Origin: Ferrovibrio sp.
GTDB taxonomy: Bacteria > Pseudomonadota > Alphaproteobacteria > Ferrovibrionales > Ferrovibrionaceae
Reading direction: 5' to 3'
Assembly (NCBI RefSeq): GCF_041906005.1
Contig: NZ_JAYRJY010000003.1
Coordinates: 3,724-67,723 of the forward strand
DNA length: 64,000 nucleotides
The notes below the pieces were generated by a model. It was given only the letters and a program-made list of their open reading frames with translations. It did not search any database and was not told where the DNA came from. A program made the position numbers and the translations under genes. This document shows positions 3,179 through 21,703 of this stretch, one piece after another; the first letter of the stretch is position 1, and each line of letters opens with the position of its first letter.

Positions 3179-3850
3179 ATGCCGAAACCGATTGCCGCCG
3201 ATATTGCCCGCAGCTTGCAGCAGCGCATCGACGCCGGCGAATGGGCCGATGGGCGCCAGGTACCGCCGGAGCGCGACCTCGCCGCCGATTTCGGCGTAGC
3301 CCGGAACACGATCCGCCGCGCAATGGACATGCTGCGCGATCAGGGAACGATTTCGCGCCATGTCGGGCGCGGCACCTTCGTCGCCAACGGCGCCAAGCAT
3401 TCCCTGAGCGAGATCGTTGCCGGCATGGAAGGGGCGAGCCCCGCCGACATGATGGAACTGCGCCTGCTGCTGGAACCCTTGTCGTCGGCCAATGCCGCGA
3501 TCAATGCCAGCGCGGCACAACTCGCCGGCATCGAGGAAGCGCACCGCGAGGCCAATGCCGCCACCGACATCATGACGTTCGAGCAGTGGGATTCAGCCCT
3601 GCACCACCGCATCTTTGCCTGCTCACGCAACGAATTGCTGCGCGGCATCTATGATCTCCTCCATGTCCTGCGCAATCAATCGCCCTGGTTCGACATGAAG
3701 AAGCGCTCCTTTTCGGAGGAGCGGCGGCAGAATTACTGCCAGCAGCACGACGCGATCGTGACGGCGATCCTCAACCGCGATCCGGAAGCGGCGCGCGCGG
3801 CGACGCTGGCGCATCTGAAGACGGTCGAGGCCAACCTGCTGGGGCGTTAG
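3179..3850 (+). CDS. GntR family regulator (FadR/FCD subfamily)
   Basis: wHTH VPPERDLAADFGVARNTIRRA and GRGTFV; FCD domain with DSALHHRI and QHDAIV. Alternative start at 3140. Confidence 0.92.
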   Translation: MPKPIAADIARSLQQRIDAGEWADGRQVPPERDLAADFGVARNTIRRAMDMLRDQGTISRHVGRGTFVANGAKHSLSEIVAGMEGASPADMMELRLLLEPLSSANAAINASAAQLAGIEEAHREANAATDIMTFEQWDSALHHRIFACSRNELLRGIYDLLHVLRNQSPWFDMKKRSFSEERRQNYCQQHDAIVTAILNRDPEAARAATLAHLKTVEANLLGR

Positions 3851-4905
3851 TGCTTCAACATCGCCTGGCGCCAGACGCGCGGGCTCGTCCCGGCCCAGCG
3901 CGTGAAGGCACGGGTGAAGGCGGAAAGCTCGGAATAGCCGAGCAATAAGGCAATCTCGCTCAAGGGCAGCTGGCTTTGCTGCAGATAATGCCGGGCGAGG
4001 TCGAAACGGGTCACTTCGACGGCCTCGCGATAGCCCATGCCGGCATCGGCCAGGGCACGCTGGATCGCATGCGGGCTGAGACGCAGCGTGTGAGCCACCT
4101 GTTCCAGCGTCGGCGCCCCTTCGGCCAGACGCAGCCGCACGGCACCGCGCACCCGGTCTATGAGCGAATCCGGCCGATCGCGGGACCCCAGCGATTCCAG
4201 GCAGGTCTGCATCATGGTGAGGAGTTTGAGGTCGCGGCCCGGCATCGGCCGGCTGAGCAGATCGGCATCGAAGATGATGGCATTGGTGGCGCAGCCGAAG
4301 AAAACCGGCGCGCCGAACGCCATCTCATGCTGCCGCCAATCGGGGGGCCGTGGATGCTCGAACTGGATTTCCAGCGGCGACCAATGCTTGCCGCAACATT
4401 CGCGGATGATGTTGGTGAATTGCCCCAAAGAGAGCTCGGCATCCTGGCGCCGGGCCACAATCGAGGGGGAAATAATCTGATATTCCAGGCGCATGCGCTT
4501 GTCCCCATCGCGCCGCAGCGACATCACGGACGAGCTTTGCTGGAAACGGAACAAGCCGACCAGATTTTCGAGAGCGCTGCCGAGGGTGGGCGAGGACAAG
4601 GAGGCATAGCCCCACATCCCCAGATCGCGCGGGGAGAATTGCTGGCCGAACCAGAGGCCGAAATTGTCACGGCCGGTCTGGCGGGCGGCCTCCTCGAACA
4701 GGGCGCAATAGGCGGCAAGGCGCAATTGCAGGGTCGGGGCCGCGGTCATTTCCGGCGCCAGGCCGCAATTGCCGAAGATGGAATCCACATCCCCGCCCTG
4801 GGCGTCGATGAATTCCACCAGACCGGCGGCGGCGGCGGAGAGCACGACCGGTGCCTTGTCGGCACTGCCCGCGTCTGAATTCGCCCGTCCGCCCAATTGG
4901 ATCAT
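3847..4905 (-). CDS. AraC family activator 1 (long ligand-binding domain, possibly QhpR-like)
   Basis: C-terminal EIALLLGYSELSAFTRAFTRWAGTSP AraC signature; divergent from the dehydratase operon. Confidence 0.9.
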   Translation of the reverse strand: MIQLGGRANSDAGSADKAPVVLSAAAAGLVEFIDAQGGDVDSIFGNCGLAPEMTAAPTLQLRLAAYCALFEEAARQTGRDNFGLWFGQQFSPRDLGMWGYASLSSPTLGSALENLVGLFRFQQSSSVMSLRRDGDKRMRLEYQIISPSIVARRQDAELSLGQFTNIIRECCGKHWSPLEIQFEHPRPPDWRQHEMAFGAPVFFGCATNAIIFDADLLSRPMPGRDLKLLTMMQTCLESLGSRDRPDSLIDRVRGAVRLRLAEGAPTLEQVAHTLRLSPHAIQRALADAGMGYREAVEVTRFDLARHYLQQSQLPLSEIALLLGYSELSAFTRAFTRWAGTSPRVWRQAMLKH

Positions 4906-5110: not shown

Positions 5111-7390
5111 ATGAGCGAGCGCCCGCAACAGAACGCCAATCGCTGGCGGCGCTTTGCCGATTGGGACGAACGGCCTCTGCGCCTCGATCGTTTCGCGGTG
5201 GAGGACCCCGAGAACGGCTTTGCCGCCTTCAAGGGTGCCAAGGACCCCAAGCCCGGCCTGGCCATTGCAGAGGGCAGGGTGGTGTCGATGGACGGCATCC
5301 CGGCGGCCGAATTCGACATGATCGATCATTTCGTCGCTCATCATCATCTCGATCTCGACCTCGCCCCGCAAGCGATGGCGATCCCCTCTGCCGACATCGC
5401 CCGCATGCTGGTCGACATTGCCGTGCCACGGACCGAACTGGCGCGCCTTGCCCATGGCCTCACCCCCGCTAAGCTTGCCGAGGTGGTGGCACAGCTCTCG
5501 GCGATCGAGCTCGCTTTCGCTTTCTCGAAGATGCGCACCCGCAAGACGCCCGGCAATCAGGGCCATGTCACCAATGCCAAGGACGACCCGCTGCAATTGG
5601 CGGCGGATGCCGCGACGGCGGTCGCTTTCGGCTTCGACGAGGTCGAGACGACCATGCGCGTCGCGAGGAATGCCTGGTCGAACGCTCTGGCCTGCGCCGT
5701 GGGTGCCTCGGTCGGCCGTTGGGGCACGCTTTTTCAATGTTCCAGCGAAGAATCCGAGGAATTGCAGATCGGCATGGCGGGCTTCACATCCTATGCCGAG
5801 ACGGTTTCCGTCTATGGGACGGAGCGCGCTTTTACCGACGGCGACGACACGCCCTGGTCGAAAGCGTTCCTGGCCGCTGCCTATGCCAGCCGCGGCATCA
5901 AGATGCGCTGCACGTCAGGGGCCGCATCCGAACTGCTGATGGGATTCCATGAATCGAAGTCCCTCCTTTATCTGGAAGCCCGCTGCCTGTGCCTGCAGCG
6001 TGCCATGGGCGTGCAGGGGACGCAGAATGGCGGCATCGATGGGGCCCCCCTGGCCTCGACCATGCCGGGCGGTGTCCGGGAGCTGATGGCGGAAAATCTC
6101 ATCGCTGTCTGGCTCGACCTCGAATGCGCCACCGGCAATGATGCGCGGCATTCGGAATCGGAAATCCGGGTGGGAGCCAAGATCCTGCCCTTCCTCATCG
6201 CCGGGTCCGATTTCATCTGCTCCGGCATGGGGTCGATCCTCGCCTATGACAATTCCTTCAACCCCTCCTCCTTCAATGGCGAGGAGATGGAGGATTTTCT
6301 GGTGCTGCAGCGCGATTTCGAGGCCGATGGCGGGCTGACCTCGGTCGGCGAATCCCGCGCCCTGGAACTGCGCCGGCGGGCGACCGATGCGCTGGGCGCG
6401 GTGTTCGAGGAGTTGGGCCTTGGCACGCCGAGCGCTGCAATGAAGCGCAGCGTCGTTGTGGCCTCCGGCTCCAACGAGACCGAGAGCTATCTGCCGCGCG
6501 ACGTCACCCTCATCAGCGAGAAAATCAAGGCGCGCGGGATCAACGTGCTCGACGTCATCAAGGCGCTGGCCGTGCGCGGCTTCCGGGAGGAAGCACAGAA
6601 TCTCCTCAATGTCGTGCGCCTGCGGGTGTCGGGCGATTATCTGCAGACGGCGGCGGTGGTACGCCAGGGACATGTCATCAGCGCCGTCAACGATCCCAAC
6701 GACTATGGCGGACCCGGCACCGGCTATCGGCTGAGCGGCCAGCGCCGCCAGGAACTGGCCGCTATCCGCGATGTGCTGACGCGCGAGGAGGTCTTGCGCA
6801 CAGAAGCCACCTTCGCCGGTGCCGAGAACCGGCGCATCCGCTACCGAGCCTTGGGCGATGCGGCAACGAGCGGGCCGAAAAACGAGATCGTCATTGGCGT
6901 CAGCCCAGCCTTCGGTCTGAAGCTCTTCCGGACATTGGCCGGCCATCCGCTTTCCGCCGTGCTGCGGGCGATGAGCGAGGGTATTGCCGAAAAGGGCGGC
7001 GTTGCCCGCATCGTGCGCATGCGACACACGGCCGATACCTCGTTCCTGGGGCTGAGTGCAGCGCGCCTCGCCGGCTCCGGTATCGGCATCGGCATCCAGG
7101 CCAAGGGGACCGCCGTCATCCACCAGGCCGACCGCCTGCCCCATCACAATCTGGAACTGTTCTCCAACGCGCCGATCACGTCGCTTGCGCATTACCGAAA
7201 GCTTGGGCAGAACGCGACCGCTTACGCCAAGGGCGAATTGCCGGAGCCGGTCGTGGTGCCGACCGAGGGCGAGGCCATGGGAGCCCGCTTCCATGCCCAG
7301 GTGGCCCTTATCTATGCGATCGAGACCTCGCTCGCGCAGGACGGCGCCAAGCCTGAGGAAATCGAGATCGCCTTCCTGGAGGTTCAATAA
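5111..7390 (+). CDS. Adenosylcobalamin-dependent diol/glycerol dehydratase, fused large (alpha) and medium (beta) subunits
   Basis: Alpha motifs QGHVTN, FDEVETT, YAETVSVYGTE, FTDGDDTPWSK and SAVNDPNDYGGPGTGYRL; from about residue 575, beta motifs EIVIGVSPAFG, GSGIGIGIQAKGTAVIHQ and NLELFSNAP. Confidence 0.95.
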   Translation: MSERPQQNANRWRRFADWDERPLRLDRFAVEDPENGFAAFKGAKDPKPGLAIAEGRVVSMDGIPAAEFDMIDHFVAHHHLDLDLAPQAMAIPSADIARMLVDIAVPRTELARLAHGLTPAKLAEVVAQLSAIELAFAFSKMRTRKTPGNQGHVTNAKDDPLQLAADAATAVAFGFDEVETTMRVARNAWSNALACAVGASVGRWGTLFQCSSEESEELQIGMAGFTSYAETVSVYGTERAFTDGDDTPWSKAFLAAAYASRGIKMRCTSGAASELLMGFHESKSLLYLEARCLCLQRAMGVQGTQNGGIDGAPLASTMPGGVRELMAENLIAVWLDLECATGNDARHSESEIRVGAKILPFLIAGSDFICSGMGSILAYDNSFNPSSFNGEEMEDFLVLQRDFEADGGLTSVGESRALELRRRATDALGAVFEELGLGTPSAAMKRSVVVASGSNETESYLPRDVTLISEKIKARGINVLDVIKALAVRGFREEAQNLLNVVRLRVSGDYLQTAAVVRQGHVISAVNDPNDYGGPGTGYRLSGQRRQELAAIRDVLTREEVLRTEATFAGAENRRIRYRALGDAATSGPKNEIVIGVSPAFGLKLFRTLAGHPLSAVLRAMSEGIAEKGGVARIVRMRHTADTSFLGLSAARLAGSGIGIGIQAKGTAVIHQADRLPHHNLELFSNAPITSLAHYRKLGQNATAYAKGELPEPVVVPTEGEAMGARFHAQVALIYAIETSLAQDGAKPEEIEIAFLEVQ

Positions 7391-7815
7391 TGGCCCGGAT
7401 CGACGATGTTGCCGATTATCCACTCGCCGAGAACCGGCCCGACCTGGTCAAAACCGCGCGCGGCAAGGCGCTGGAAGAACTCACGCTCGATGCCGTCATG
7501 GCCGGCGAGGTGACATTGGAAGATCTGCGCATCACCCCCCAGGCACTCAAGGACCAGGCGCGCGTGGCAACCCTGGCCGGCCGGCCGACCCTGGGGCGCA
7601 ATTTCGAGCGCGCCGCCGAACTGGTGGCAGTGCCGCAGGAGTTCCTGCTGCAGGTCTACGAACTGCTGCGTCCGGGCCGCGCCAAGACAAAGGCCGATCT
7701 GCTGGATGCCGCCAAGATCTTGCGTACGATCTATAAGGCGGAAAAGATGGCCACCTTTGTTGAGGAAGCAGCGGAAGTTTACGAAAAACGTGGCCTCTTT
7801 ACCTTCCGGTTTTGA
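7390..7815 (+). CDS. pduE: Diol/glycerol dehydratase small (gamma) subunit
   Basis: DYPLAE, DLRITPQAL, NFERAAELVAVP, YELLRPGR and EAAEVY motifs; 141 aa, translationally coupled to the fusion gene. Confidence 0.92.
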   Translation: MARIDDVADYPLAENRPDLVKTARGKALEELTLDAVMAGEVTLEDLRITPQALKDQARVATLAGRPTLGRNFERAAELVAVPQEFLLQVYELLRPGRAKTKADLLDAAKILRTIYKAEKMATFVEEAAEVYEKRGLFTFRF

Positions 7816-7915
7816 ACGACGCTGATGGATATGCGGCCCCCTCTCCGCGTGATATCCTTCTTACGTGCATACTGAACACACATGCACGCATTGGATACAT
7901 GGATGGAGGCATTCG

Positions 7916-8158
7916 ATGATAATATATGAGTTGATTGCCGCGGTTCCTGCGGGACCGGGGCATCCTGGGCACACCGTTCTCGCATTGAAACAAGGATCGC
8001 CTTTCATGGCGGCAAATGTAGGCGACTATTTCGATGTTGCCGATCCAGCCGGTACGCCCAACTATAGAATTACCGCAATCCGTCACGACATCTTCAAAGG
8101 ACCCGGCGGCCCGGATACCCATGTGTGCCGCACCTCGCTTGCACTGGGCATTGTCTAG
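7916..8158 (+). CDS. Small hypothetical protein (80 aa)
   Basis: Strong SD GGAGG 6 nt before ATG 7916; fills an otherwise empty gap; no family recognised. Confidence 0.55.
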   Translation: MIIYELIAAVPAGPGHPGHTVLALKQGSPFMAANVGDYFDVADPAGTPNYRITAIRHDIFKGPGGPDTHVCRTSLALGIV

Positions 8159-8182
8159 TCTTCTCAATTAGCCAAAAGCGAC

Positions 8183-8232
8183 TGCTCAGCATGATCTACA
8201 TTGCCGATCGCCCAAAATGATCATGCTGAGCA
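8183..8232. repeat. Perfect 14-bp inverted repeat
   Basis: TGCTCAGCATGATC 8183-8196 and GATCATGCTGAGCA 8219-8232, 22-nt spacer. Confidence 0.85.
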
Positions 8233-8254
8233 CCGCTCTACTACGAGCAAAGTC

Positions 8255-8950
8255 ATGAACTGGAAGACGCGACACCGATCCTTCTATTACCAAGGCGCGC
8301 CGGAGCCCGACGATCTTGCCTTCAAGCCCGCCGAGACGGCGCTCCTGGTCATCGATGTGCAGAACACCTATCTGGAACGGCCGGAGCGAGCCACGCTCGA
8401 TGCTGCCGGCAAGGCGCATTTCGACGCCTGGACGCCGTTTCACGAACGCATGAACGGCATGGTCATCCCGCGCACGGCGGAACTGCTGCGCCTGGCGCGC
8501 AAGCACGGTATCGAATGCCTGTTTGCGCGCATCGCCTGCCGGACCAAGGATGGCCGCGACCGGTCGTTGAGCCAGAAGATGCCCGGCTGGAACAATCTGC
8601 TGCTGCCCAAGAACGAGCATGCGTCGCAACTGGTGCCGCAACTGGAGCCCCAAGGCGACGAGATTGTCGTCACCAAGACAACCGACAGCGCGCTCACGGG
8701 CACCAACCTGCGCCTAATCCTGCACAATCTGGGCATCAGAAACGTCATCTGCGCCGGCATCTTCACCGACCAATGCGTCTCCTCGACCGTGCGGAGCCTC
8801 GCCGACGAAAGCTTCCAGGTCGTGGTGCTGGAGGATTGCTGCGCCGCCGGCTCAGATACGCTGCACGAACAGGAACTGGCGATCATCAACATGATCTACT
8901 GCCATGTCATGACCGCCGACGAACTCAAAGCGATGATGAAACTCACATGA
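8255..8950 (+). CDS. Isochorismatase-family cysteine hydrolase (amidase)
   Basis: Asp-Lys-Cys triad in VIDVQN, VVTKTT and GIFTDQCV; ATG 8255 preferred over the TTG at 8201. Confidence 0.9.
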   Translation: MNWKTRHRSFYYQGAPEPDDLAFKPAETALLVIDVQNTYLERPERATLDAAGKAHFDAWTPFHERMNGMVIPRTAELLRLARKHGIECLFARIACRTKDGRDRSLSQKMPGWNNLLLPKNEHASQLVPQLEPQGDEIVVTKTTDSALTGTNLRLILHNLGIRNVICAGIFTDQCVSSTVRSLADESFQVVVLEDCCAAGSDTLHEQELAIINMIYCHVMTADELKAMMKLT

Positions 8951-9675
8951 AACGCATCCTGATCATCGTTCCGGAACTGGTGGCCCCGCCGGGTATTCTC
9001 GGCCAGGCGCTGATCGCACAGGGTGTCCATTATGACGCCGTCTTCCCGGTGGCCCGCTTTGCCACCTATTCCCCGATGGACTATCCCGGCTTGCCACAGG
9101 GTCCCGCCAATTATGCCGGTCTGATCGTGCTGGGCGGGCCGATGAGCGCCAAGGATGAGCATCTCTATCCCTTCCTCACCGAGACCATGGCCCTGATACG
9201 GGCCTTCACAGCGGTGGAACGGCCGGTGCTGGGCGTGTGCCTGGGCGCCCAGATCATCGCCCATGCCTTCGGTGGCGAGATCTATCGCATGGGAAAACTG
9301 GAATCCGGTTTCTATCAATTGGCGCTGACGCCGGAAGGACGCAGCGACCCGCTGTTCCGGGACTTTGCCGAGCCGGTAACGGTCTTTGAAAACCATTACG
9401 AAGCGACACGCAACACACCGGGCGCTGTACCGCTGATGACCGGCGGCGCCTGTCCTATCCAGGCTTTCCGCGTCGGCGCCAAGACTTATGGCGTGCAATT
9501 CCATGTCGAGGTCACGATCGACATCGTGCGCGATTGGATCCGGATGTTCGGCGCGGATTTCTGCCGGGATGAGCCAAGATTGCTGACCGATCTCGACCGC
9601 CAGTTCGAGATCCATTTCGGCGACTATGTTCGCGCCTGCGATACGCTCACGCGGAATTGGTTGGCGTTAAGCTGA
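8947..9675 (+). CDS. Class I glutamine amidotransferase-like hydrolase
   Basis: LIVLGGP, GVCLGAQ (Cys) and QFHVE (His-Glu); ATGA-coupled to the upstream gene. The track's start at 8515 is an upstream extension. Confidence 0.9.
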   Translation: MKRILIIVPELVAPPGILGQALIAQGVHYDAVFPVARFATYSPMDYPGLPQGPANYAGLIVLGGPMSAKDEHLYPFLTETMALIRAFTAVERPVLGVCLGAQIIAHAFGGEIYRMGKLESGFYQLALTPEGRSDPLFRDFAEPVTVFENHYEATRNTPGAVPLMTGGACPIQAFRVGAKTYGVQFHVEVTIDIVRDWIRMFGADFCRDEPRLLTDLDRQFEIHFGDYVRACDTLTRNWLALS

Positions 9676-9767: not shown

Positions 9768-9928
9768 CCCTAGCGTGACCGACTTTAAGACGACTTGCGG
9801 CAAGCAAGCGACAGAATGAGCACACCACATTCGATGGAGTCCGGCCGGGTTTTGCGGACCGGTGCTCCAGCTTGGTCAACAGGGAAGCGGCACCGGCAAC
9901 AATCGACCGGGCCAACGGAGAGGGACAG

Positions 9929-11092
9929 ATGAGCAGCTTCAAGCAGTCACGTCGCAACTTCATGCAGAATTCGGCCCTGATGGCCGCGGCCTTTGCCACC
10001 AGCGGCGTAGCGGGCCTGCGCTCGGCCTATGCCGATCGCTCCAAGGAACTCAATATCCTGTGTTGGGAAGGCTATAACTCGGCGCAAGTCTTGGATCCAT
10101 TCCGCGAATCCAACGGCGCCACGGTGAAGGCGGAATCGCTCACCAACGACCCCACCATGATCAACCGCCTGCGTGCCGGCGAAACCAATGTCTGGGACCT
10201 GATCAACGTCAACAATCCCTGGGCACGCAAGATCATGTTTCCGGAGAAGCTGATCCAGCCGCTCGACCGGGCCAAAATGGAACCCTATTTCGAGAAGATG
10301 GCCCCCGCCTTCAAGCCGCCCTATGCGTGGGCCATGGACGAAAGTGGCAGCCAGCTCATCGGCATGGCACAGCGCTACGGTCCCTACAGCTTCGTCGTCA
10401 ACACCGACAAAGTGAGCCGCGCCACCGCCGAGGATCAGGGCTGGGATCTGTGGAACGACGCGGGCAATGCCGGCAAGTACGGCGTGCTTGAATCCGATGA
10501 TTGGAACGTCTTCAACCTGTGCTGCATCGCCGGCTTCGATCCCTTCAAGGAGCATACGCCGGAGGAAATCGCCAAGTTCACGGAAACCGCCAAGCGCGTC
10601 TTCAAGGGCGCCAAGGTGGTGGGCGACATCGCGACCATGAACCAGGCCCTTGTCTCGGGCGAGATCGATTTCCACATGACCGGCGGTACCTACTCCGCCT
10701 CGCCAGCCCGCGCCGATGGCGCCGGCAATATCCGCGCCATCACGCCGAAAAAGGGGCCGCTCGCTGGCGGCAAGGGCGGCATTTCCTGGATCGAGATCAC
10801 CTCGGTGGTCAACAATCCAGACGTCTCGCCGCTTGCCGTGCAGTTCCTGGAATATGTCCAAGACCCGAAAGTCGCCCATACGGTCGCTTTCGCCGAGGGC
10901 ACGTTCAACCCGGTGGCCCAGATGGGCAATCCGGATTGCTTCAGTCTCTTCACCAAGGAAGAACTCGATGCGATCCAGTATGACAGCCTGGAAGAGGAAA
11001 TGGCGCGTTCGGTCGAATACGACATTGTGCCGGACTACGACAAGCTGCTCGACATCATGACCGCTGCCAAGCGCGAAGCTTCGGGCGGCTGA
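9929..11092 (+). CDS. PotD/PotF-family ABC substrate-binding protein with Tat signal
   Basis: SRRNFM twin-arginine motif, AYA cleavage site, LNILCWEGY and YGPYSFVVNTD; SD GGAGAGGG before ATG 9929. Confidence 0.85.
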   Translation: MSSFKQSRRNFMQNSALMAAAFATSGVAGLRSAYADRSKELNILCWEGYNSAQVLDPFRESNGATVKAESLTNDPTMINRLRAGETNVWDLINVNNPWARKIMFPEKLIQPLDRAKMEPYFEKMAPAFKPPYAWAMDESGSQLIGMAQRYGPYSFVVNTDKVSRATAEDQGWDLWNDAGNAGKYGVLESDDWNVFNLCCIAGFDPFKEHTPEEIAKFTETAKRVFKGAKVVGDIATMNQALVSGEIDFHMTGGTYSASPARADGAGNIRAITPKKGPLAGGKGGISWIEITSVVNNPDVSPLAVQFLEYVQDPKVAHTVAFAEGTFNPVAQMGNPDCFSLFTKEELDAIQYDSLEEEMARSVEYDIVPDYDKLLDIMTAAKREASGG

Positions 11093-11119
11093 TCAATCGG
11101 CTGCTGCCACCACGACGTC

Positions 11120-11151
11120 GGATCGCCCGGTGCGTAGATGCCGGGCGATCC
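11120..11151 (+). terminator. Stem-loop after the SBP gene (terminator or mRNA-stabilising hairpin)
   Basis: GGATCGCCCGG / CCGGGCGATCC, 11-bp perfect stem. Confidence 0.6.
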
Positions 11152-11198
11152 CGTCTTGATCCCCCTCCATTTCATCACGATCCGGATTCCCAAGGACC

Positions 11199-12266
11199 AT
11201 GAACGGCCGATCGCCCATTCTGCAATTGCGCAATCTGACCAAGACCTTCGGCAACTTCACGGCCGTCAAAGGAATCAGCCTCGACATCTCCGAGGGCGAA
11301 TTCTTCACCATCGTCGGCCCGTCGGGCAGCGGCAAGACAACCTTGCTGCGCATGCTGACGGGCATGGAAAGCGCCACGGGCGGCGACATCTTGCTGCGAG
11401 GCGCCCGCATCAACGATCTGCCCGCCAACAAGCGGCCGACCTGCATGGTGTTCCAGTCGCTGGCCCTCTTCCCACATCGTACCGTCGGGCAGAACATCGA
11501 ATTTTCCCAGAAGATCAAGGGCGTGGCACCCGATAAGCGCAAGACGCGGGCCCTGCAGCTGATGGCGCAGCTGCGCTTGCCGGAAAACTACTACGACAAG
11601 AGTGTCACCAAATGCTCTGGCGGCGAGAGGCAGCGCGTGGCGCTCGCCCGGGCGCTGGCCTATGACCCGGACATCCTGTTCTTCGACGAGCCGTTGTCGG
11701 CCATCGATTACAAGCTGCGGAAAACACTGGAAAAAGAACTCAAGGACATTCACCGCGAAACCGGCAAGACCTTCATCTACATCACCCACAGCCTGGAAGA
11801 GGCGATGGTGATGAGCGACCGCATCGGCGTCATGCGCACGGGGCAATTGGTCCAGGTCGGTTCGCCACAGCAGATCTACAGCGCGCCGGAAACCAAGTTC
11901 GTCTCCGAATTCATCGGGGATGTGAACGTCATGGCCGTAACAGCAAACGGTGCCAGCGGCGTCCATGCTGCGGAGTTCGACGTGGATTTCGTGAGCCAGA
12001 CTGTGCCGGCGGGCTTCACCAATGGGCATCTGGTGGTGCGTCCGGAATCGTTGCGCTTCCTGAGCCATCGGGCCGAGGCGCAGAACTGCCTGGAAGGTCG
12101 CCTCTATAATGAATATGTGCTGGGTTCGCGCATCCAATACCAGGTGCGCGTGGGCGAGCATGTCTTCATCGTCGAAAAACTGCGCCAGCAGCAATTCGGC
12201 GGCAAGCTCGACGACCAGGTCCTCATCGGCTGGGATGCCAAGGACGGCATCCTGGTAACGGATTGA
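11199..12266 (+). CDS. PotA-type ABC ATPase
   Basis: GPSGSGKTT, CSGGERQRVALARA, LFFDEP and TOBE-like C-terminus. Confidence 0.92.
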   Translation: MNGRSPILQLRNLTKTFGNFTAVKGISLDISEGEFFTIVGPSGSGKTTLLRMLTGMESATGGDILLRGARINDLPANKRPTCMVFQSLALFPHRTVGQNIEFSQKIKGVAPDKRKTRALQLMAQLRLPENYYDKSVTKCSGGERQRVALARALAYDPDILFFDEPLSAIDYKLRKTLEKELKDIHRETGKTFIYITHSLEEAMVMSDRIGVMRTGQLVQVGSPQQIYSAPETKFVSEFIGDVNVMAVTANGASGVHAAEFDVDFVSQTVPAGFTNGHLVVRPESLRFLSHRAEAQNCLEGRLYNEYVLGSRIQYQVRVGEHVFIVEKLRQQQFGGKLDDQVLIGWDAKDGILVTD

Positions 12267-12279
12267 GCGGGGCCTCGCC

Positions 12280-13134
12280 ATGACCCTGCTCAAGATTTTC
12301 GGACCGGGTACGCGACATGCTCTGCCGCTGATCCTCTTCCTGCTTATCGGCTTTGCCGCGCCCCTGGCGGCCGTCATCGGCTTCAGTTTCACGCCGGCAC
12401 GAACCTTCTCGATCTGGCAAAGCTGGAGCCTCGACAATTATATCGAGATATTCAATTCGACGAGCTATCTCTCCTTCCTTTGGTCGCTGGGCCTCGCCGC
12501 TGTCACGGTACTGATCCTGGCCCTCATCTGCTATCCGATCGCCTATGGCCTGGCGCGCGTCTTCGGCAAATATTCGACGCTGGTGACGCTGCTCTTCACC
12601 ATTCCGCTGTTCGTCTCGGAAAATGTCCGTCTCTACGGCTGGGTCCTGTTCTTTATCAAGAACGGCGTGCTGCTGGGCACGCTCAAGGCTTGGTTCGGCA
12701 TCGAACCGGATAGCTGGCTTTTCACCAGCGGCATCATCGTTTTCGGCATGGTCTATGTCTATCTGCCGTTCATGCTGTTCCCGATGACGCTCGGCGTCTC
12801 GATGGTGCCGGACCAGACGCGGGACGCCGCCTTCGATCTGGGCGCTACGCGCTGGCAGGTGTTCAAAGAGGTGGAACTGCCGCTTTCCATGCCGGGCATC
12901 ATGATCGGCTTCCTGCTGTCCTTCGTGCTGGCGGTGGGCGCCATCGCCGAAGCCAAGGTACTGGGCGGGCAGCAAATCATACCGATCAGCCATGATATCG
13001 AGATCGCCTTCACCTATGCGCAGAACTGGCCGCTGGGCGCCGCCCTTGCCGTGCTGCTGATGCTGGTGGTGGGCAGCATGGTGCTGTTCGTGCTGCGCCG
13101 CTTCGATCTCGATGCCATTCTGGGGCGGAGATAG
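12280..13134 (+). CDS. PotB-type ABC permease
   Basis: Hydrophobic helices; YVYLPFM and DAAFDLGATRWQVF EAA-loop. Confidence 0.9.
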   Translation: MTLLKIFGPGTRHALPLILFLLIGFAAPLAAVIGFSFTPARTFSIWQSWSLDNYIEIFNSTSYLSFLWSLGLAAVTVLILALICYPIAYGLARVFGKYSTLVTLLFTIPLFVSENVRLYGWVLFFIKNGVLLGTLKAWFGIEPDSWLFTSGIIVFGMVYVYLPFMLFPMTLGVSMVPDQTRDAAFDLGATRWQVFKEVELPLSMPGIMIGFLLSFVLAVGAIAEAKVLGGQQIIPISHDIEIAFTYAQNWPLGAALAVLLMLVVGSMVLFVLRRFDLDAILGRR

Positions 13135-13137
13135 GCG

Positions 13138-13956
13138 ATGGATGGTCTTACCCCCCGCTGGCGGACGTCGCTGATCTGGGCCTGGACGGCGGCGATCGTC
13201 GTCTTCATGTATCTGCCGGGGCTCTGCCTGTTGCTCGCCTCCCTTACATCAAGCCGCTATTTCATCTTCCCCATCAACAAATGGGGTGTCGCTTGGTGGC
13301 AGAAGACTTTCGACTCGCTGGAAATTCATCAGCTTTTCAAGACCTCGATCTCGATTGCGCTGTGCGTCACGGTGATTGCCGTCGTGATCGCGCTCTTCGG
13401 GGCGCTGGCCTTTGCGCGCTATGACTGGAAGGGCCGGTCGATCTATCAGAAAATCGTGTTGCTGCCGATCTTCTTCCCGCAATCGGTCTTGGGGCTGGCG
13501 CTGCTGCTCTGGTTCAACGCCTTGGGCCTCACCATGTCGTGGCAGACGGCGGTCTTTGCGCATCTCGTCTGGATCATCCCCGTCTGCACGCTGGTCATCT
13601 CGATTCAGGTCTATTCCTTCGATCCGGCCTTGGAAGAAGCGGCTTTCGATCTCGGCGCCACGCGCTGGCAGGTGTTCCGCGAAGTGACCTTGCCGGTGCT
13701 GTTCCCCGGCATCTTCTCGGGTGCCCTCTTCGCGTTCCTTCTGAGTTGGGGCAATTTCCCGCTGTCGCTTTACACGACCGGCGCCGACACAACGATTCCG
13801 GAATATCTCTACGCGAAGATGGTTGCCGGCTATACCCCGGGCGTGCCGGTGCTCGGTACCGTTTCGACCTTCGGTGCGGCGACCCTGCTGCTCGCCGGCT
13901 ATGCCATCATCCTGATCCTGCGCCGGCGCCGCGCCAGCGCGCCGTCCGAGACCTGA
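13138..13956 (+). CDS. PotC-type ABC permease
   Basis: EEAAFDLGATRWQVFREVTLP and TIPEYLY. Confidence 0.9.
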   Translation: MDGLTPRWRTSLIWAWTAAIVVFMYLPGLCLLLASLTSSRYFIFPINKWGVAWWQKTFDSLEIHQLFKTSISIALCVTVIAVVIALFGALAFARYDWKGRSIYQKIVLLPIFFPQSVLGLALLLWFNALGLTMSWQTAVFAHLVWIIPVCTLVISIQVYSFDPALEEAAFDLGATRWQVFREVTLPVLFPGIFSGALFAFLLSWGNFPLSLYTTGADTTIPEYLYAKMVAGYTPGVPVLGTVSTFGAATLLLAGYAIILILRRRRASAPSET

Positions 13957-13978: not shown

Positions 13979-14761
13979 ATGTTGGGGCAATCAATCCAGG
14001 GGAAATCCGTCATCGTCACCGGCGCCAGCAAGGGCATCGGCAAGGGCATCGCCCGCGTCTTCGCGCGCCACGGTGCCAAGGTGCTGGTGGTGGGACGCGA
14101 CCTCAAATCGGCGGAAGCAACGGCGAAGGATTTCGTCGATTCCGGCTGGACGGCAAGTGGCTTTTCCGCCGACGTTACCAAGCTTGCCGACATGGAGAAG
14201 ATGGCCAAGACAGCAGCGGATCGTTACGGCGGCGTCGATGTGCTCTGCGCCAATGCCGGCGTTTTCCCGCAGGTGAAGATCGAGGATATGTCCCCGGAGA
14301 CCTGGGATGAGGTGCAGGCAACCAATCTCAAGGGCACGTTTCTTTCCGTGAAGGCCTGTATCCCCTACCTCAAGAAATCGGGCGAGGGACGCATCGTCAT
14401 CACCTCTTCTATCACCGGGCCGGTCACCGGCTTTCCCGGCTGGACCCATTACGGCGCTACCAAGGCCGGGCAATTGGGCTTCATGCGCACGGCCTGCATG
14501 GAAGTCGCCAAATATGGGATCACGGTCAATGCCGTGCTGCCGGGCAATGTGATGACCGAAGGCCTCATCGAGCTTGGCGAGGATTATGTGAAGGGCATGG
14601 CCGCGGCCGTGCCGATGGGCAAGCTTGGCAATGTCGAGGATATCGGCCATGCCGCCCTCTTCCTCGCCTCGCGCGAGGCCGGCTACATCACCGGGCAAAC
14701 GATCATCGTCGATGGCGGCCAGATCCTGCCCGAGAGCCAGGACGCGCTGTCGCAGATGTAA
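13979..14761 (+). CDS. SDR oxidoreductase, amino-alcohol (1-amino-2-propanol/aminoacetone) dehydrogenase-like
   Basis: TGASKGIG, NAG and YGATK. The SSITGP-TG-PGW-HYG, VLPGN-TEGL and DGGQILPES segments match my recollection of the RMM aminopropanol dehydrogenase. Confidence 0.75.
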   Translation: MLGQSIQGKSVIVTGASKGIGKGIARVFARHGAKVLVVGRDLKSAEATAKDFVDSGWTASGFSADVTKLADMEKMAKTAADRYGGVDVLCANAGVFPQVKIEDMSPETWDEVQATNLKGTFLSVKACIPYLKKSGEGRIVITSSITGPVTGFPGWTHYGATKAGQLGFMRTACMEVAKYGITVNAVLPGNVMTEGLIELGEDYVKGMAAAVPMGKLGNVEDIGHAALFLASREAGYITGQTIIVDGGQILPESQDALSQM

Positions 14762-14764: not shown

Positions 14765-15832
14765 TCAGTGCCCCTGCTTCCGATAGGCGCGCGGGCTGAC
14801 ACCCGTCCAGCGGGTGAAGGCGCGGGTGAAGGCGGAGAGCTCCGAATAGCCGAGCAGCAGGGCGATCTCGGTCAGCGGTAGCTGGCGCTGATCGAGATAC
14901 ATCTGGGCAAGGCTCTGCCGTGTCGTTTCGACCGCATCCTTATAGGTGAGCCCCTGTTCAGCGAGTTCCCGCTGCACCACAGCGGCCGGCACGCGCAGGG
15001 AATGAGCGATCTGATCGAGGCTGGGGTAGCCGCCGGGCAGGCTCACGCGGATCGCCGTCTTGACCCGGTCGACCATACCGTCGGTCCCCTGCCGATGCGA
15101 ACCCAGAGATTCGAGGCAGGTCTGCATCATGGTCAGAAGCTGCAAATCGCGGCCCGGCATCGACCGCTCGAGGAGTTCGGGACGGAACAGCAGCGCATTG
15201 GTCGGCTGGCTGAAATAGACCGGCGCATCGAAGGCCGCCTCGTGCTCCTTCCAGAATTCCGGGCGCGGATGCTCGAAATGCACCTCGACCGGCGTCCATT
15301 TCGACCCGCAGCAATCGCGGATGACATTGGCGAACATGCCGAGCGAGAGTTCCGCATCCTGCCGGCGCTCGACGATTTCCGAGGAAAAGATCTGGTATTC
15401 GAGCCGCATCAGCCCGTCGGTGCCCTTCACCAGCTGCATCCCTGAGGATTCCTGGTGGTAGTGGAAAAGCCGCACCAGATTTTCGAGAGCCGCCCCCAGA
15501 TTTGGGGATGAGATCGCTGCATAGCCCCACATGCCGAGGTCGCGCGGCTGGAATTGCTGGCCGAAATGCAGACCGAAATTGCCCGGGCTGAACTTGTCGC
15601 CCTGGATCTGCTTGGCCGCTTGCTCGAAGAGGCGGCAATAAGAAGCGAGTTTTAGTTTCAGGGTGGGCGATCCGGCCATATCCGGTGCAATGCCGGAATT
15701 GCCGAAGATCGAATCCACATCACCGCGCTGACGCTCGATGAAGTCCACCAAGCCGGTGGCAGCCGCGGCAAGGACGATCGGTGCCCCGCTTTCGCGCGTC
15801 TCGGTCTTGTGATCCAGCAAAGCGGCAGCCAT
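14765..15832 (-). CDS. AraC family activator 2, paralog of 3847-4905
   Basis: Same C-terminal signature and shared GQQF-PRDLGMWGYA and RRQDAELSLG blocks; start moved to ATG 15832. Confidence 0.9.
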   Translation of the reverse strand: MAAALLDHKTETRESGAPIVLAAAATGLVDFIERQRGDVDSIFGNSGIAPDMAGSPTLKLKLASYCRLFEQAAKQIQGDKFSPGNFGLHFGQQFQPRDLGMWGYAAISSPNLGAALENLVRLFHYHQESSGMQLVKGTDGLMRLEYQIFSSEIVERRQDAELSLGMFANVIRDCCGSKWTPVEVHFEHPRPEFWKEHEAAFDAPVYFSQPTNALLFRPELLERSMPGRDLQLLTMMQTCLESLGSHRQGTDGMVDRVKTAIRVSLPGGYPSLDQIAHSLRVPAAVVQRELAEQGLTYKDAVETTRQSLAQMYLDQRQLPLTEIALLLGYSELSAFTRAFTRWTGVSPRAYRKQGH

Positions 15833-15877
15833 CGGAAATCCCCGGCTAAACGTCACGCACCAGACTGTGGATGCTTG

Positions 15878-15907
15878 ATGATGGCATGGCGCATGGCGCG
15901 GCTTCAA
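15878..15907 (-). promoter_or_regulatory. Putative sigma70 promoter of AraC2
   Basis: Minus strand TTGAAG-N18-CATCAT, same block as at 4949. Confidence 0.4.
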
Positions 15908-16085: not shown

Positions 16086-17084
16086 ATGAGCGGCATGCTC
16101 ACGACAGAACAATTGTTGCGCGCGATCGATGAGCTGGCTGCTGCCGCCTTGCCCCGCTGGGGGTTGGCTGGCGCCGAGCTGAAGCTGATCAATCATTCGG
16201 AAAATTGGACCTATCGCGTGACGCCCCGGGGCACCGCGCGTCCGGTCATCCTGCGCGTGCATCGGGAAGGCTATCACAGCGTCGACGGCATCCGCAGCGA
16301 GCTTGCCTGGATGCGCGCCCTGCAATCGCAAGCGGGTGTGAAGACGCCACAGGCCATTCCCGGCACCGACGGCGCCGATATCCAGACCGTGGCGCATCCG
16401 GCCCTCGCCACGCCGCGCAATTGCGTGCTGTTCGAATTCATCGACGGGACCGAGCCGCCGCAGGACAATCTCATTCCGCCTTTCCGTCAATTGGGCGAGG
16501 TAACGGCGCGCTGCCACAATCACAGCGAAACCTGGACGCGCCCCCCCTATTTCGAGCGCCTTTCCTGGGACTTTGAACATTCCCTGGGGAAGACCGCCAA
16601 TTGGGGTGCCTGGCAGGACGGGCCGGATTGCACGCCGGACCGCGCCCGGCTGTTGCAGCGCGCGGTCGATCTGATGGAGAAGCGGCTGACGGCTTTCGGA
16701 CAGGCCCGGAACCGTTACGGCCTCATCCATGCCGATTTCCGCCTCGCCAACCTGCTTGTTCACAATGGCGATGTGCGCGTCATCGATTTCGACGATTGCG
16801 GCCTCGGCTGGTTTCTCTATGACGCAGCAAGCGCGGTGAGTTTCTTCGAGGACCGCGCCGATGTGCCGGAACTGATGGAAGCCTGGAAGGAAGGCTATCG
16901 CCGCCAGCGCGCGCTGCCGAAGACGGACGATGACGAATTGTGGACCTTCATCCTGCTGCGTCGCATGACGCTCTTTGCCTGGATGGGGAGCCATGCCGAA
17001 ACGGATCTCGCCCGCACCGAGGGCCCCGGTTACAGCACCGGCACCTGCGAACTCGCTGAACGTTATCTGAGCCAATACAGCTGA
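16086..17084 (+). CDS. APH/choline-kinase-fold phosphotransferase, aminopropanol kinase-like
   Basis: SENWTY, ILRVHR, HADFRLANLL (HxDxxxxN) and VIDFDD; microcompartment context. Confidence 0.8.
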   Translation: MSGMLTTEQLLRAIDELAAAALPRWGLAGAELKLINHSENWTYRVTPRGTARPVILRVHREGYHSVDGIRSELAWMRALQSQAGVKTPQAIPGTDGADIQTVAHPALATPRNCVLFEFIDGTEPPQDNLIPPFRQLGEVTARCHNHSETWTRPPYFERLSWDFEHSLGKTANWGAWQDGPDCTPDRARLLQRAVDLMEKRLTAFGQARNRYGLIHADFRLANLLVHNGDVRVIDFDDCGLGWFLYDAASAVSFFEDRADVPELMEAWKEGYRRQRALPKTDDDELWTFILLRRMTLFAWMGSHAETDLARTEGPGYSTGTCELAERYLSQYS

Positions 17085-17108
17085 ACCCCGACGGGTCAGG
17101 AGTTACCG

Positions 17109-18398
17109 ATGGTCGATTACCCAGAGAGTCCCGAGAAGCGCGAGTTCATCGCCAAGTCGAAGCAATTCTGGAATCCAGGCAAGACCCAGGCTTGGCAGGA
17201 TATGGGCGTCGATCTGGTGATCGATCGGCGTGAGGGCTACCTGCTCTGGGACATGGATGGGCGGCGTCTTATTGATCTCCATCTCAACGGTGGCACCTAC
17301 AATATCGGTCATCGGCATCCGGAACTGATCGAGGTGCTCAATCGCGGCATGCAGCGCTTCGACATGGGCAATCACCACTTCCCAAATATGGGCCGCACGG
17401 CCTTGGCCGAGCGGCTGGCGCGCATCTGCGGCGGCGACATGCACTATACCATGTATGCCTCAGGCGGCGCCGAAGCCATCGACATCGCCCTCAAGACCGC
17501 GCGCCACGCCACACAGCGGCGCAAGATCGTCTCGATCATCAATGCCTATCATGGCCATACCGGCCTCGCCGTCGCCGCCGGCGCTGATCGCTTCAAGAAG
17601 ATCTTTCTGTCCGACCAGCCGGAAGATTTCGTGCATGTGCCTTTCAACGATCTCAACGCGATGGAAGATGCGCTGAAAGGCAAAGACGTCGCCTGCCTCA
17701 TCATGGAGACGATTCCCGCGACCTACGGCTTTCCGATGCCGCTGCCCGGCTACCTCACGGAAGTGAAGAAGTTGTGCGAGCGTTATGGCGCACTCTATGT
17801 CGCGGATGAAGTGCAGACGGGCCTGATGCGCTGCGGCGAAATGTGGGGCTATCAGCGCTATGGCATCCAGCCGGACATCATGGTGACCGGCAAGGGCATT
17901 TCCGGCGGTATGTATCCGATCGCCTGCGTCGTGGTGCGCGAGCCCTATGCCGGCTGGCTGAAACAGGACGGTTTTGCCCATATGTCGACCATGGGCGGCG
18001 CCGAGCTCGGCTGCCTGGTTGCCATGAAGACGCTAGAAATCCTCGAACGTCCGATGGTGAAGCCGATGGTCAACTATATCTCCGAGACGTTCCGCAACGG
18101 TCTTCACGAGATCATGCGGCTTTATCCCAGCTTCTTCGTGGGCTTGCGCCAATGTGGCGTCGTCATGGGGCTGGAATTCGATTTCCCCGAGGGCGCCAAA
18201 CCGGTGATGAAGCATCTCTATGAAAACGGCGTCTGGGCGATCTTCTCGACGCTCGATCCGCGCGTGCTGCAATTCAAGCCCGGTGTGTTGATGACCGCCG
18301 ATCTCTGCGCCGAGGTGCTGGAGCGGGTCGAACGCAGCATCGGTCTCGCCTATGCCGAATGCATGGGCAAAGGTCGCAGCGCCCATCGGGCCGCCTGA
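17109..18398 (+). CDS. Class III PLP-dependent enzyme, probably an amino-alcohol O-phosphate phospho-lyase (or aminotransferase)
   Basis: SGGAEA, YHGHT, ADEVQTG and PLP lysine in VTGKGISGG; adjacent to the kinase. Confidence 0.8.
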   Translation: MVDYPESPEKREFIAKSKQFWNPGKTQAWQDMGVDLVIDRREGYLLWDMDGRRLIDLHLNGGTYNIGHRHPELIEVLNRGMQRFDMGNHHFPNMGRTALAERLARICGGDMHYTMYASGGAEAIDIALKTARHATQRRKIVSIINAYHGHTGLAVAAGADRFKKIFLSDQPEDFVHVPFNDLNAMEDALKGKDVACLIMETIPATYGFPMPLPGYLTEVKKLCERYGALYVADEVQTGLMRCGEMWGYQRYGIQPDIMVTGKGISGGMYPIACVVVREPYAGWLKQDGFAHMSTMGGAELGCLVAMKTLEILERPMVKPMVNYISETFRNGLHEIMRLYPSFFVGLRQCGVVMGLEFDFPEGAKPVMKHLYENGVWAIFSTLDPRVLQFKPGVLMTADLCAEVLERVERSIGLAYAECMGKGRSAHRAA

Positions 18399-18411
18399 GG
18401 AGCGCCGCGAT

Positions 18412-20007: not shown

Positions 20008-20025
20008 GAAGGCAGCACTGATATC

Positions 20026-21298: not shown

Positions 21299-21327
21299 CC
21301 AACACTGTTGAAAGCAAGGAGAGAACC

Positions 21328-21609: not shown

Positions 21610-21628
21610 CTGATCGACGCAAGCTTGA

Positions 21629-21661: not shown

Positions 21662-21703
21662 CAGATGTGTTGACGTTGCTCTAACGCCTTCCGGAATCAA
21701 TTT

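Follow-up and report, generated by a model that had tools for sequence, protein, structure and literature searches.

A fused B12-dependent diol dehydratase of Ferrovibrio sp. with an aspartate in its substrate pocket, and the probable coupling of its subfamily to amino-alcohol catabolism

B12-dependent diol dehydratases rank among the best-studied radical enzymes, and to our knowledge they act in nature only on diols that are small and neutral. The window analysed here, a stretch of 64,000 nucleotides from contig NZ_JAYRJY010000003.1 of Ferrovibrio sp., encodes a member of the family with an aspartate at the pocket position that is Ser-301 in Klebsiella oxytoca. Which substrate does such a pocket serve? 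An earlier note on this DNA had suggested a diol carrying an ammonium group, and the locus is examined here residue by residue and gene by gene with this question in view.

The gene (5,111-7,390, + strand, 759 aa) encodes an alpha-beta fused AdoCbl dehydratase of the diol/glycerol family, Asp-301 type, with the large- and medium-subunit domains PF02286 (1.5e-208) and PF02288 (3.3e-25). The small-subunit domain PF02287 (4.5e-48), which completes the set, is found in a separate gamma subunit (7,390-7,815, + strand, 141 aa; NF011975, 197 bits, cut-off 196), whose start overlaps the alpha-beta stop codon; the two genes are neighbours in 77 of the 80 alphaproteobacterial loci sampled. The fused protein passes the NCBIfam model NF011979 for the propanediol/glycerol large subunit (820 bits, cut-off 788), matches PDB entries 9vi2, 1iwp and 1dio, and contains no EutB domain according to Pfam. 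It shares its three-subunit set with Klebsiella PddABC/DhaB123 (1DIO, 3AUJ, 1IWP), to which the alpha part is 46-49% identical, but alpha and beta form one polypeptide here, the genome of the window has no reactivase gene, the gene context is not of the Pdu/Dha kind, and the N-terminal targeting extensions are absent. At the N-terminus the fusion is longer by no more than about 8 residues, and gamma begins at its core; an encapsulation peptide is probably missing from the fused dehydratase.

Phmmer aligns the fused protein with the K. pneumoniae glycerol dehydratase 9vi2 without gaps from residue 11 to about residue 459 at an offset of 8, equivalent to an offset of 9 in K. oxytoca numbering since 1dio_A 2-549 matches query 11-557. 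At this offset the Ca2+ ligands Q141, E170, E221, Q296 and S362, the catalytic residues H143 and D335, and likewise T222 and F374 are all kept (9/9), in agreement with the by-eye alignment of the earlier note. The AlphaFold model superimposes on 1DIO_A and 3AUJ_A in 551 columns for 551 residues (TM 0.94, rmsd 2.2 A), and its beta part on 1IWP_B with a TM of 0.9. PduO-type and CobA-type adenosyltransferases are encoded in the genome, so that a supply of AdoCbl is available. The gene product is predicted to be an intact diol dehydratase dependent on AdoCbl and Ca2+, consisting of an alpha-beta fusion and a separate gamma subunit.

The motifs GTQNGGIDG and TGNDARH both occur in the ORF 5,111-7,390. 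Because the alignment is ungapped at an offset of +9, the in-frame codon GAT at 6,038-6,040 (+ strand; D310) corresponds to S301 and the codon GCG at 6,143-6,145 (+ strand; A345) to Q336. Both assignments had been proposed before; D310 falls on the pocket position and not outside it, and the equivalence, as read from the alignment, appears almost certain. The codon GAA at 6,155-6,157 (+ strand; E349) corresponds to H340 and represents a second acidic clade-specific change, near D335/Q336 in sequence. Compared with the Klebsiella enzymes, the pocket differs by S301 to Asp, Q336 to Ala, I303 to Ala and H340 to Glu. Near the pocket the AlphaFold model is of moderate confidence (mean pLDDT 70 at residues 301-310, 57 at 341-350).

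D310 occurs without exception in 141 homologues of 42-99% identity, in which A345 is at least 90% conserved; the Asp/Ala pair is not a product of chance. E349 is likewise at least 90% conserved in this Asp-type set, with H or N at its position in Ser-type sequences, and Asp is present in all 79 readable loci of the 80 alphaproteobacterial ones. Only 8 positions separate Asp-type from Ser-type enzymes, D310 being the clade-defining one among them, and two of the 8 are acidic gains; further differences between the two types lie at S299, C302 and I303.

In the canonical pocket S301 and Q336 touch the C3 substituent of the substrate; S301 hydrogen-bonds the 3-OH of glycerol in 3AUJ, and the S301A/Q336A exchange enlarges the pocket, lowers glycerol inactivation and lets longer diols and 1,2,4-butanetriol be accepted (reviews PMC7674605, PMC9850924), so that the mutant literature is upheld as cited before. 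Those engineered variants (with V300M as well; Yamanishi et al. 2012 and subsequent studies covered by the two reviews) are altered at two positions that are also changed in the natural enzyme, Q336A identically. Their enlarged pocket admits C3-extended diols and was designed for neutral longer ones, whereas the natural enzyme possesses an invariant carboxylate instead of Ala at 301. Our literature search found no paper describing a pocket Asp.

Asp-type sequences (141, from Alphaproteobacteria and Actinobacteria) form a single clade with an SH-aLRT of 99, and a Ser/Ala fused clade is its sister. In this sister, Ser-301, Cys-302 and His-340 are still present, but Ala-336 is common to it and the Asp type; the Asp is therefore a clade-specific change and the Ala is not. 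The Asp type is carried by at least 563 species genomes, and the enzyme was found in 3 of 300 other alphaproteobacterial genomes sampled. The Mesorhizobium enzymes and the window protein belong to one group of 73-76% identity, and the relatives are alphaproteobacterial. Natural alpha-beta fusions of the same architecture come from Mesorhizobium loti and Mycobacterium smegmatis (Liu et al. 2010, as given in the review PMC7674605); the review presents them only as fusion candidates for glycerol conversion, and its account of them makes no mention of a pocket Asp or an amino-alcohol context. The Asp-301 subfamily is widespread and uncharacterised.

The dehydratase operon stands divergent from an AraC-family regulator gene (3,847-4,905, - strand; Pfam Arabinose_bd and HTH_18), which is QhpR-like according to NCBIfam (332.8 bits, cut-off 250). 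QhpR is the regulator of an amine dehydrogenase operon. A 438-bp insert between the gamma and amidase genes is single-copy in the genome, which rules it out as a repeat family. The amidase gene (8,255-8,950 with an alternative start at 8,201, + strand; PF00857, 2.7e-34) encodes an isochorismatase-family cysteine amidohydrolase with nearest solved structures of the NicF/BiuH/TrtA/RutB type. The following gene for a stand-alone class-I glutamine amidotransferase-like protein (8,947-9,675, + strand; PF00117, NCBIfam GATase models below cut-off) was considered as a core partner and rejected, as it occurs in just 3 of the 42 alphaproteobacterial loci that have 8 kb or more of flank on either side (hereafter full loci). 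A polyamine-type ABC importer (9,872-13,956, + strand; Pfam, with only distant similarity to PotD/PotF) comprises a binding protein (9,872-11,092), an ATPase (11,199-12,266) and two permeases (12,280-13,134 and 13,138-13,956).

The importer is followed by genes known from RMM microcompartment loci. A short-chain dehydrogenase (SDR; 13,979-14,761, + strand) matches PDB 3pk0, 6ci8 and 6ci9 at 5e-92 to 1e-88, which we take to be the 1-amino-2-propanol dehydrogenase of the M. smegmatis RMM, and is considered its orthologue. Beyond a second AraC-family regulator (14,765-15,907, - strand; Pfam), a paralogue of that at 3,847-4,905, an APH-family kinase (16,086-17,084, + strand; PF01636) matches PDB 6ef6 at 7e-85 as the orthologue of the (S)-1-amino-2-propanol kinase; judging from reference titles, 6EF6 is presumably the M. 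smegmatis kinase. A class-III PLP enzyme (17,109-18,398, + strand; PF00202, 6e-73), presumed to be the amino-alcohol-phosphate phospho-lyase of RMM loci, a CoA-acylating aldehyde dehydrogenase of the microcompartment type (18,352-20,007, + strand; PF00171, NCBIfam EutE/AdhE-type models below their cut-offs) and the shell genes (20,026-22,339, + strand; PF00936, PF03319) complete the series. The shell genes encode BMC-T, a 140-aa hypothetical protein, BMC-P, BMC-H and a second BMC-T-like protein, the last of which has no Pfam match but has orthologues of 58-68% identity in other loci. The RMM core at 16,086-22,339 shares its locus with the dehydratase at 5,111-7,815, and the RMM2-type gene set is complete.

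The actinobacterial RMM2 locus (Axen et al. 2014, PMC4207490) likewise combines a class-III PLP enzyme, aldehyde dehydrogenase, BMC-T/P/H, APH kinase, SDR and diol dehydratase homologues. The present locus differs from it, as described, by its alphaproteobacterial host, AraC-type instead of GntR regulators, an ABC importer instead of AA_permease, an isochorismatase-type instead of FmdA/AmdA amidase and the absence of a reactivase. Axen et al. preferred the view that the dehydratase plays no part in the compartment (PMC4207490). Our search of the literature on RMM1/RMM2 after 2017 and on aminoacetone utilisation found nothing on dehydratase function.

Orthologues of the SDR, kinase or PLP enzyme lie beside the Asp-type enzyme in 40 of the 42 full loci. 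Counted singly, the SDR is present in 35, the kinase in 31, the amidohydrolase (next to gamma) in 33, the ABC importer in 23-25 and shell genes in 13 of the 42, while PLP-enzyme orthologues were detected in 36 of all 80 loci, often slightly past the fetched flank. Many loci, some of Mesorhizobium and Hyphomicrobium among them, yielded neither an aldehyde dehydrogenase nor a shell orthologue within the flanks that were fetched. Of the loci without the ABC importer, the one checked, from Mesorhizobium, has an AA_permease gene in its place; the transporters belong to the amine or amino-acid class, with non-orthologous replacement between ABC and AA_permease. A DdrA-type reactivase (PF08841) was found neither in any of the 80 alphaproteobacterial loci nor in the genome of the window (100% complete) and three further genomes (G213, G036 and G084; 94-100% for the four).

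Six actinobacterial Asp-type loci were read. Three of these are RMM2-type (Microbispora, Dactylosporangium and a metagenome contig), and on the contig the Asp-type gene is co-directional with its neighbours with overlapping gene ends. Two of these three have FmdA/AmdA amidases beside the permease gene. The other three loci contain no RMM genes within 10 kb. Actinobacterial Asp-type enzymes have a reactivase gene directly downstream. One divergent Asp-type enzyme is paired with a PLP decarboxylase, and the two Ser/Ala fused loci read lie in unrelated contexts with no aminopropanol-pathway neighbours.

The Asp-301 subfamily is genomically tied to an aminoacetone/1-amino-2-propanol module and to amine-type importers and regulators. 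As judged from gene content, this module would comprise the dehydrogenase, kinase and PLP phospho-lyase, to which an acylating aldehyde dehydrogenase and microcompartment genes of the RMM type are often added. Amine-related neighbours of the Asp-301 clade in two phyla include the aminopropanol dehydrogenase and kinase orthologues, the class-III PLP enzyme, the amine-type transporters and the QhpR-like regulator. The possibility, raised at the outset, that the pocket residues are general in fused enzymes without amine context holds for Ala-336 and fails for Asp-301, which is confined to the clade with these neighbours. The Asp-301 type very probably constitutes a distinct subfamily coupled to amino-alcohol catabolism.

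What the enzyme of this subfamily dehydrates can be proposed at several levels. Its radical and metal machinery is retained as a whole, and the part of the pocket facing the C2 substituent of the substrate has been rebuilt by S301 to Asp, I303 to Ala and, nearby in sequence, H340 to Glu, over an older Q336 to Ala. On the most likely reading, the Asp-301 type would dehydrate a small vicinal diol that bears an amine and is positively charged. The carboxylate would presumably pair with the substrate ammonium, and an amino-carbonyl compound would be formed and enter the neighbouring aminoacetone/1-amino-2-propanol pathway. The position of Asp-type enzymes beside amino-alcohol breakdown genes in two phyla argues for action on an amine-bearing diol. 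We give the amino-diol dehydratase explanation as a whole a probability of about one in two; that the substrate itself is amine-bearing has, in our estimation, a little under an even chance, and 3-amino-1,2-propanediol would be the best guess. We know of no source in which the latter is an abundant natural metabolite, and no paper linking aminopropanediol to B12 dehydratases was found in our literature search.

With canonical regiochemistry, a C3-ammonium diol would yield 3-aminopropanal, for which the kinase and phospho-lyase route has no obvious use. Aminoacetone would require reversed regiochemistry, with hydrogen abstracted at C2; the aminomethyl group would then sit on the opposite carbon, at a distance from residue 301. 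As a product, aminoacetone seems doubtful. Equally tentative is the more specific proposal of a new AdoCbl eliminase in which Asp and Glu would bind the ammonium of 3-amino-1,2-propanediol, or a close diol, and H-abstraction at the secondary carbinol would give aminoacetone, as a B12-dependent entry to the microcompartment pathway, reactivase-free in Alphaproteobacteria. The amino-diol model in its simple form also leaves the conserved neighbouring amidases unaccounted for.

Ethanolamine ammonia-lyase EutBC is likewise an AdoCbl radical eliminase, acts on an amine-bearing two-carbon substrate and has a related TIM-barrel (TM about 0.6), but it is no more than 12-14% identical to the present enzyme, lacks a Ca2+ site and has the amine as its migrating group. 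A mechanism of this kind on a vicinal amino-alcohol is judged unlikely because the diol-binding Ca2+ ligands are all intact.

The main rival to an amine-bearing substrate is 1,2-propanediol. Propionaldehyde is also the product of the phospho-lyase, so that an ordinary propanediol dehydratase could let diol and amino-alcohol routes converge on a shared aldehyde dehydrogenase and microcompartment, a chemically economical arrangement. RMM2 loci consist of RMM genes plus diol dehydratase homologues, for which Axen et al. 2014 (PMC4207490) raised the option of a 'bifunctional BMC'. The wholly canonical catalytic and Ca2+ residues and the score above the NCBIfam propanediol/glycerol cut-off also agree with it. 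However, it does not account for an invariant Asp, or for Glu in place of His, in two phyla; the linkage to SDR, kinase, PLP enzyme, amidase and transporter persists in the many loci without detected aldehyde dehydrogenase or shell in the fetched flanks, and no diol facilitator is present among the annotated genes of window positions 1-24,000 and one Mesorhizobium locus. Furthermore, without an encapsulation peptide, propionaldehyde would be freed outside the shell meant to confine it. We regard a plain propanediol role as unlikely.

The missing alphaproteobacterial reactivase would be explained if the enzyme were a glycerol or neutral-polyol dehydratase in which Asp-301 and Ala-336 lock the 3-OH in one orientation and avoid suicide inactivation; none of the DdrA type was found in the four enzyme-bearing genomes or the 80 loci. 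In the Klebsiella enzymes S301A and Q336A each lower glycerol inactivation, and the double mutant takes 1,2,4-butanetriol. Actinobacterial Asp-type enzymes, however, have the same pocket and retain the downstream reactivase gene; the pocket therefore does not abolish the need for one. The S301 hydrogen bond is moreover tied to the inactivating conformer (review), so a stronger acceptor is expected to worsen inactivation, and the annotated neighbours include no genes for glycerol, 3-hydroxypropanal or 1,3-propanediol in a context of amine catabolism. A polyol substrate is improbable on this evidence.

The amidases point to a further alternative, in which the substrate is a diol with a primary amide or ureido group, or is imported as such; Asp would bond the amide N-H, and the amidase would act before or after the dehydratase. 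The isochorismatase-type and FmdA/AmdA neighbours both resemble primary-amide or ureido hydrolases, and the recurrence of such non-homologous enzymes in both phyla (33 of 42 full loci and two actinobacterial loci, respectively) is in favour of it. Some loci nevertheless lack an amidase, the transporters look like polyamine or amino-acid importers, and no nameable metabolite of this kind would feed the aminopropanol dehydrogenase, kinase and lyase, which leaves only a slim chance for an amide-bearing substrate. Least probable is that the substitutions are a structural adjustment to the alpha-beta fusion with unchanged specificity: Ala-336 is common to all fused clades, and the type-dependent S299, C302 and I303 suggest local backbone remodelling, but fusion as their cause is rejected since the fused Ser/Ala sister clade retains Ser-301, Cys-302 and His-340 and so does not demand Asp. 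That Asp is invariant among sequences sharing about 45-50% identity and has a clade-specific gene context argues for a functional role.

If the Asp-301 type does act on amine-bearing diols, a monophyletic subfamily with an acidic pocket would extend the dehydratase family to charged substrates. The dehydratase genes of RMM2 microcompartment loci, a question since 2014, would gain a role, and the alphaproteobacterial members would be naturally fused, reactivase-free enzymes of interest for dehydratase engineering.

The dehydratase alpha-beta gene (5111-7390, + strand) translates into a product of 759 aa, in which Dehydratase_LU (residues 11-558, E 1.5e-208) is followed by Dehydratase_MU (598-711); its ORF overlaps that of the gamma (small) subunit (7390-7815). 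GAT at 6038-6040 encodes D310, and GCG at 6143-6145 encodes A345. In phmmer alignments, query residues 11 to about 459 match the K. pneumoniae glycerol dehydratase (PDB 9vi2) ungapped at an offset of 8, and residues 11-557 correspond to residues 2-549 of 1dio_A. Both matches lead to an offset of +9 to the K. oxytoca diol dehydratase, so D310 is the equivalent of S301 and A345 that of Q336. This register is validated by Q141, H143, E170, E221, T222, Q296, D335, S362 and F374, all nine of which are conserved at +9. The earlier note had made the same two assignments and regarded the catalytic and metal residues as kept, and these observations were right throughout. An AlphaFold2 model (mean pLDDT 82.6) aligns to 1DIO_A and to the glycerol complex 3AUJ_A over 551 columns of 551 residues (TM 0.94, rmsd 2.2 Å). 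The role that the note called established for S301 and Q336 likewise holds: S301 is the hydrogen-bond partner of the glycerol 3-OH in 3AUJ, glycerol inactivation is about 2.7-fold lower in S301A, and S301A/Q336A, where longer alkyl groups have more room, accepts 1,2,4-butanetriol (PMC7674605, PMC9850924).

The motif QNGG[IV]D is present in 120 of the 120 closest homologues (>=75% identity). Four pocket types occur among 50%-identity representatives of the family: the canonical Ser-301/Gln-336; Ser-301/Ala-336 in fused enzymes with alpha and beta on one polypeptide, e.g. of Gaiellales; Asp-301 with Ala, Ser or Thr at 336 and then Arg, which includes the window enzyme; and Asp-301 with Ala, Ser, Thr or Asn at 336 and then Leu. 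The last type, recovered in a second homologue search, is largely actinobacterial and also fused (e.g. Dactylosporangium, Microbispora). Across 141 Asp-type sequences of both Asp groups (identity to the query 42-99%), D310 never varies, and conservation of A345 and E349 is 90% or higher. In a maximum-likelihood tree built from the alpha region, with three canonical-type outgroup rows only, a branch with SH-aLRT 99 sets apart the full set of 33 Asp-type rows, and the Ser/Ala fused clade is their sister. Ala-336, common to both clades, is older than Asp-301. Only eight alpha positions discriminate every Asp-type from every Ser-type sequence, namely 181, 202, 301 (S to D), 303 (V/I to A), 316, 340 (H to E), 357 and 485 in K. 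oxytoca numbering. Invariance, a single clade and these positions together make Asp-301 the hallmark of a distinct subfamily. E349 (6155-6157), the equivalent of H340, is a second clade-specific acidic gain, with His or Asn in Ser-type enzymes.

In the window, an AraC regulator exceeding the NCBIfam QhpR cut-off (3847-4905, - strand) precedes the dehydratase. Downstream lie an isochorismatase-family amidohydrolase (8255-8950), a class-I amidotransferase-like protein (8947-9675), a polyamine-type ABC importer (9872-13956), a short-chain dehydrogenase (13979-14761), a second AraC regulator (14765-15907, - strand) and, at 16086-22339, in this order, an APH kinase, a class-III PLP enzyme, an acylating aldehyde dehydrogenase, BMC-T, a hypothetical protein, BMC-P, BMC-H and BMC-T. 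The kinase matches PDB 6ef6 (7e-85) and the short-chain dehydrogenase matches 3pk0, 6ci8 and 6ci9 (about 1e-89 to 5e-92), which we take to be the M. smegmatis (S)-1-amino-2-propanol kinase and dehydrogenase of Mallette and Kimber 2018. The stop of gamma and the start of the amidohydrolase are 438 bp apart (7816-8253), compared with only 3-55 bp in four Dongia relatives. This stretch, single-copy in the genome, contains a perfect inverted repeat of 14 nt (8183-8196 / 8219-8232) and an unannotated ORF of 97 codons for which Pfam gave no hit; it may represent a small gene or an insert with a regulatory role.

With one genome per species scanned, relatives of the dehydratase are present in at least 563 species. 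The best 80 loci are all alphaproteobacterial, including Dongia, Hyphomicrobium, Methyloceanibacter, Aestuariivirga, Mesorhizobium and Roseovarius, with Asp-301 in 79 of 79 readable loci. Among the 42 of them with at least 8 kb on either side, gamma is found in all 42, the dehydrogenase in 35, the amidohydrolase in 33, the kinase in 31 and shell genes in 13; 40 possess at least one of dehydrogenase, kinase and PLP enzyme. In the single locus lacking an ABC importer that was checked (L063, Mesorhizobium), an AA_permease gene occupies the importer position. The enzyme is sporadic: of 300 other alphaproteobacterial genomes sampled, 3 carry it. Two enzyme-carrying genomes labelled as a different family, G213 and G036, encode dehydratases 96% and 89% identical to that of the window; DNA identity to 40000-46000 is 90% across all of it in G213 and 83% across about half in G036. 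G271, labelled as the same genus, is without any similarity to the contig. The kinship labels of the window assembly look inconsistent; possible causes are wrong labels or mis-binning of the contig.

In Actinobacteria, Asp-type enzymes lie inside complete loci of the RMM type, the mycobacterial aminoacetone/1-amino-2-propanol microcompartment locus, in Microbispora, Dactylosporangium and one metagenome contig. These three loci contain a class-III PLP enzyme, aldehyde dehydrogenase, shell genes, kinase, SDR, GntR and AA_permease, a DdrA-type reactivase and, in two of three, an FmdA/AmdA amidase. They correspond to RMM2, i.e. RMM with diol dehydratase homologues, an association known since 2014 (Axen et al. 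2014, PMC4207490), where the dehydratase was considered probably unused by the compartment, partly since it is encoded on the opposite strand. In the actinobacterial locus L090 (1830-14125), however, RMM genes, GntR, Asp-type dehydratase and reactivase are all co-directional, and gene ends overlap at GntR/dehydratase and alpha-beta/gamma, which counters the argument for separate transcription. RMM genes were not found within 10 kb in three actinobacterial Asp-type loci; an amidohydrolase, an amino-acid-type ABC importer or a PLP decarboxylase is among the genes near these dehydratases. Gene contexts of the two Ser/Ala fused loci read are unrelated. In a divergent Asp-301/Thr-336 locus (L082:10001-17147), gamma carries a fused Peptidase_S58 (DmpA-like) domain, and genes for a PLP-dependent decarboxylase and for a reactivase of the DdrA/DdrB type come next; here this pocket type occurs in a different, possibly amine-generating setting. 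Locus L083 (9354-12013) appears to have all three subunits in one reading frame (Pfam LU, MU and SU on a 670-aa product), with a separate LU fragment of 196 aa ahead of it, which suggests either that all three are fused or that the gene is frameshifted.

Asp-301 is equivalent in position to S301, invariant and of single origin, and in both phyla the enzymes that have it are recurrently linked to the amino-alcohol module. Because this linkage holds even where regulator, transporter and amidase have been replaced by non-orthologous ones, the Asp-type dehydratase is very likely functionally coupled to aminoacetone / 1-amino-2-propanol catabolism. An amino-diol, as the note proposed, is the best single hypothesis for its substrate, since a carboxylate at the C3-substituent contact and a second acidic gain nearby in sequence would fit a cationic substituent; the amine-type importers and the QhpR-like regulator are consistent with it. 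It carries an internal tension between product regiochemistry and residue-301 contact. Canonical regiochemistry would convert 3-amino-1,2-propanediol to 3-aminopropanal, not obviously of use to the neighbouring dehydrogenase/kinase/lyase route, whose known entry metabolite is aminoacetone. To form aminoacetone, the enzyme would have to abstract H from C2 and let the primary OH migrate; the aminomethyl group would then sit on the other carbon, where it need not touch residue 301. The conserved amidases have no role in a simple amino-diol model. Non-homologous small-amide/ureido-type hydrolases recur by the Asp-type dehydratase or its permease (window 8255-8950, L087:8994-10004, L086:19741-20745), isochorismatase-type in Alphaproteobacteria and FmdA/AmdA in Actinobacteria, and point to a step of amide hydrolysis for which this model does not account.

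The strongest rival is a plain 1,2-propanediol dehydratase, whose product propionaldehyde would converge with the phospho-lyase product, propionaldehyde as well. It leaves both the invariant acidic pocket and the amine-type gene context unexplained, and its propionaldehyde would escape outside the shell, as the fused protein and gamma are without N-terminal extensions. A natural glycerol enzyme resistant to inactivation would account for the missing reactivase, found neither in four genomes (94-100% complete, the relatives with inconsistent kinship labels included) nor in 80 loci, but actinobacterial enzymes with the same pocket retain a reactivase, so the pocket does not abolish the need for one. 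AdoCbl supply is plausible, given PduO-type and CobA-type adenosyltransferases in the genome.

Natural alpha-beta fusions have been known since 2010 (Liu et al. 2010, cited in PMC7674605); we found no paper noting the pocket Asp or proposing a substrate for Asp-type enzymes. These enzymes form a defined and widespread putative specificity subfamily.
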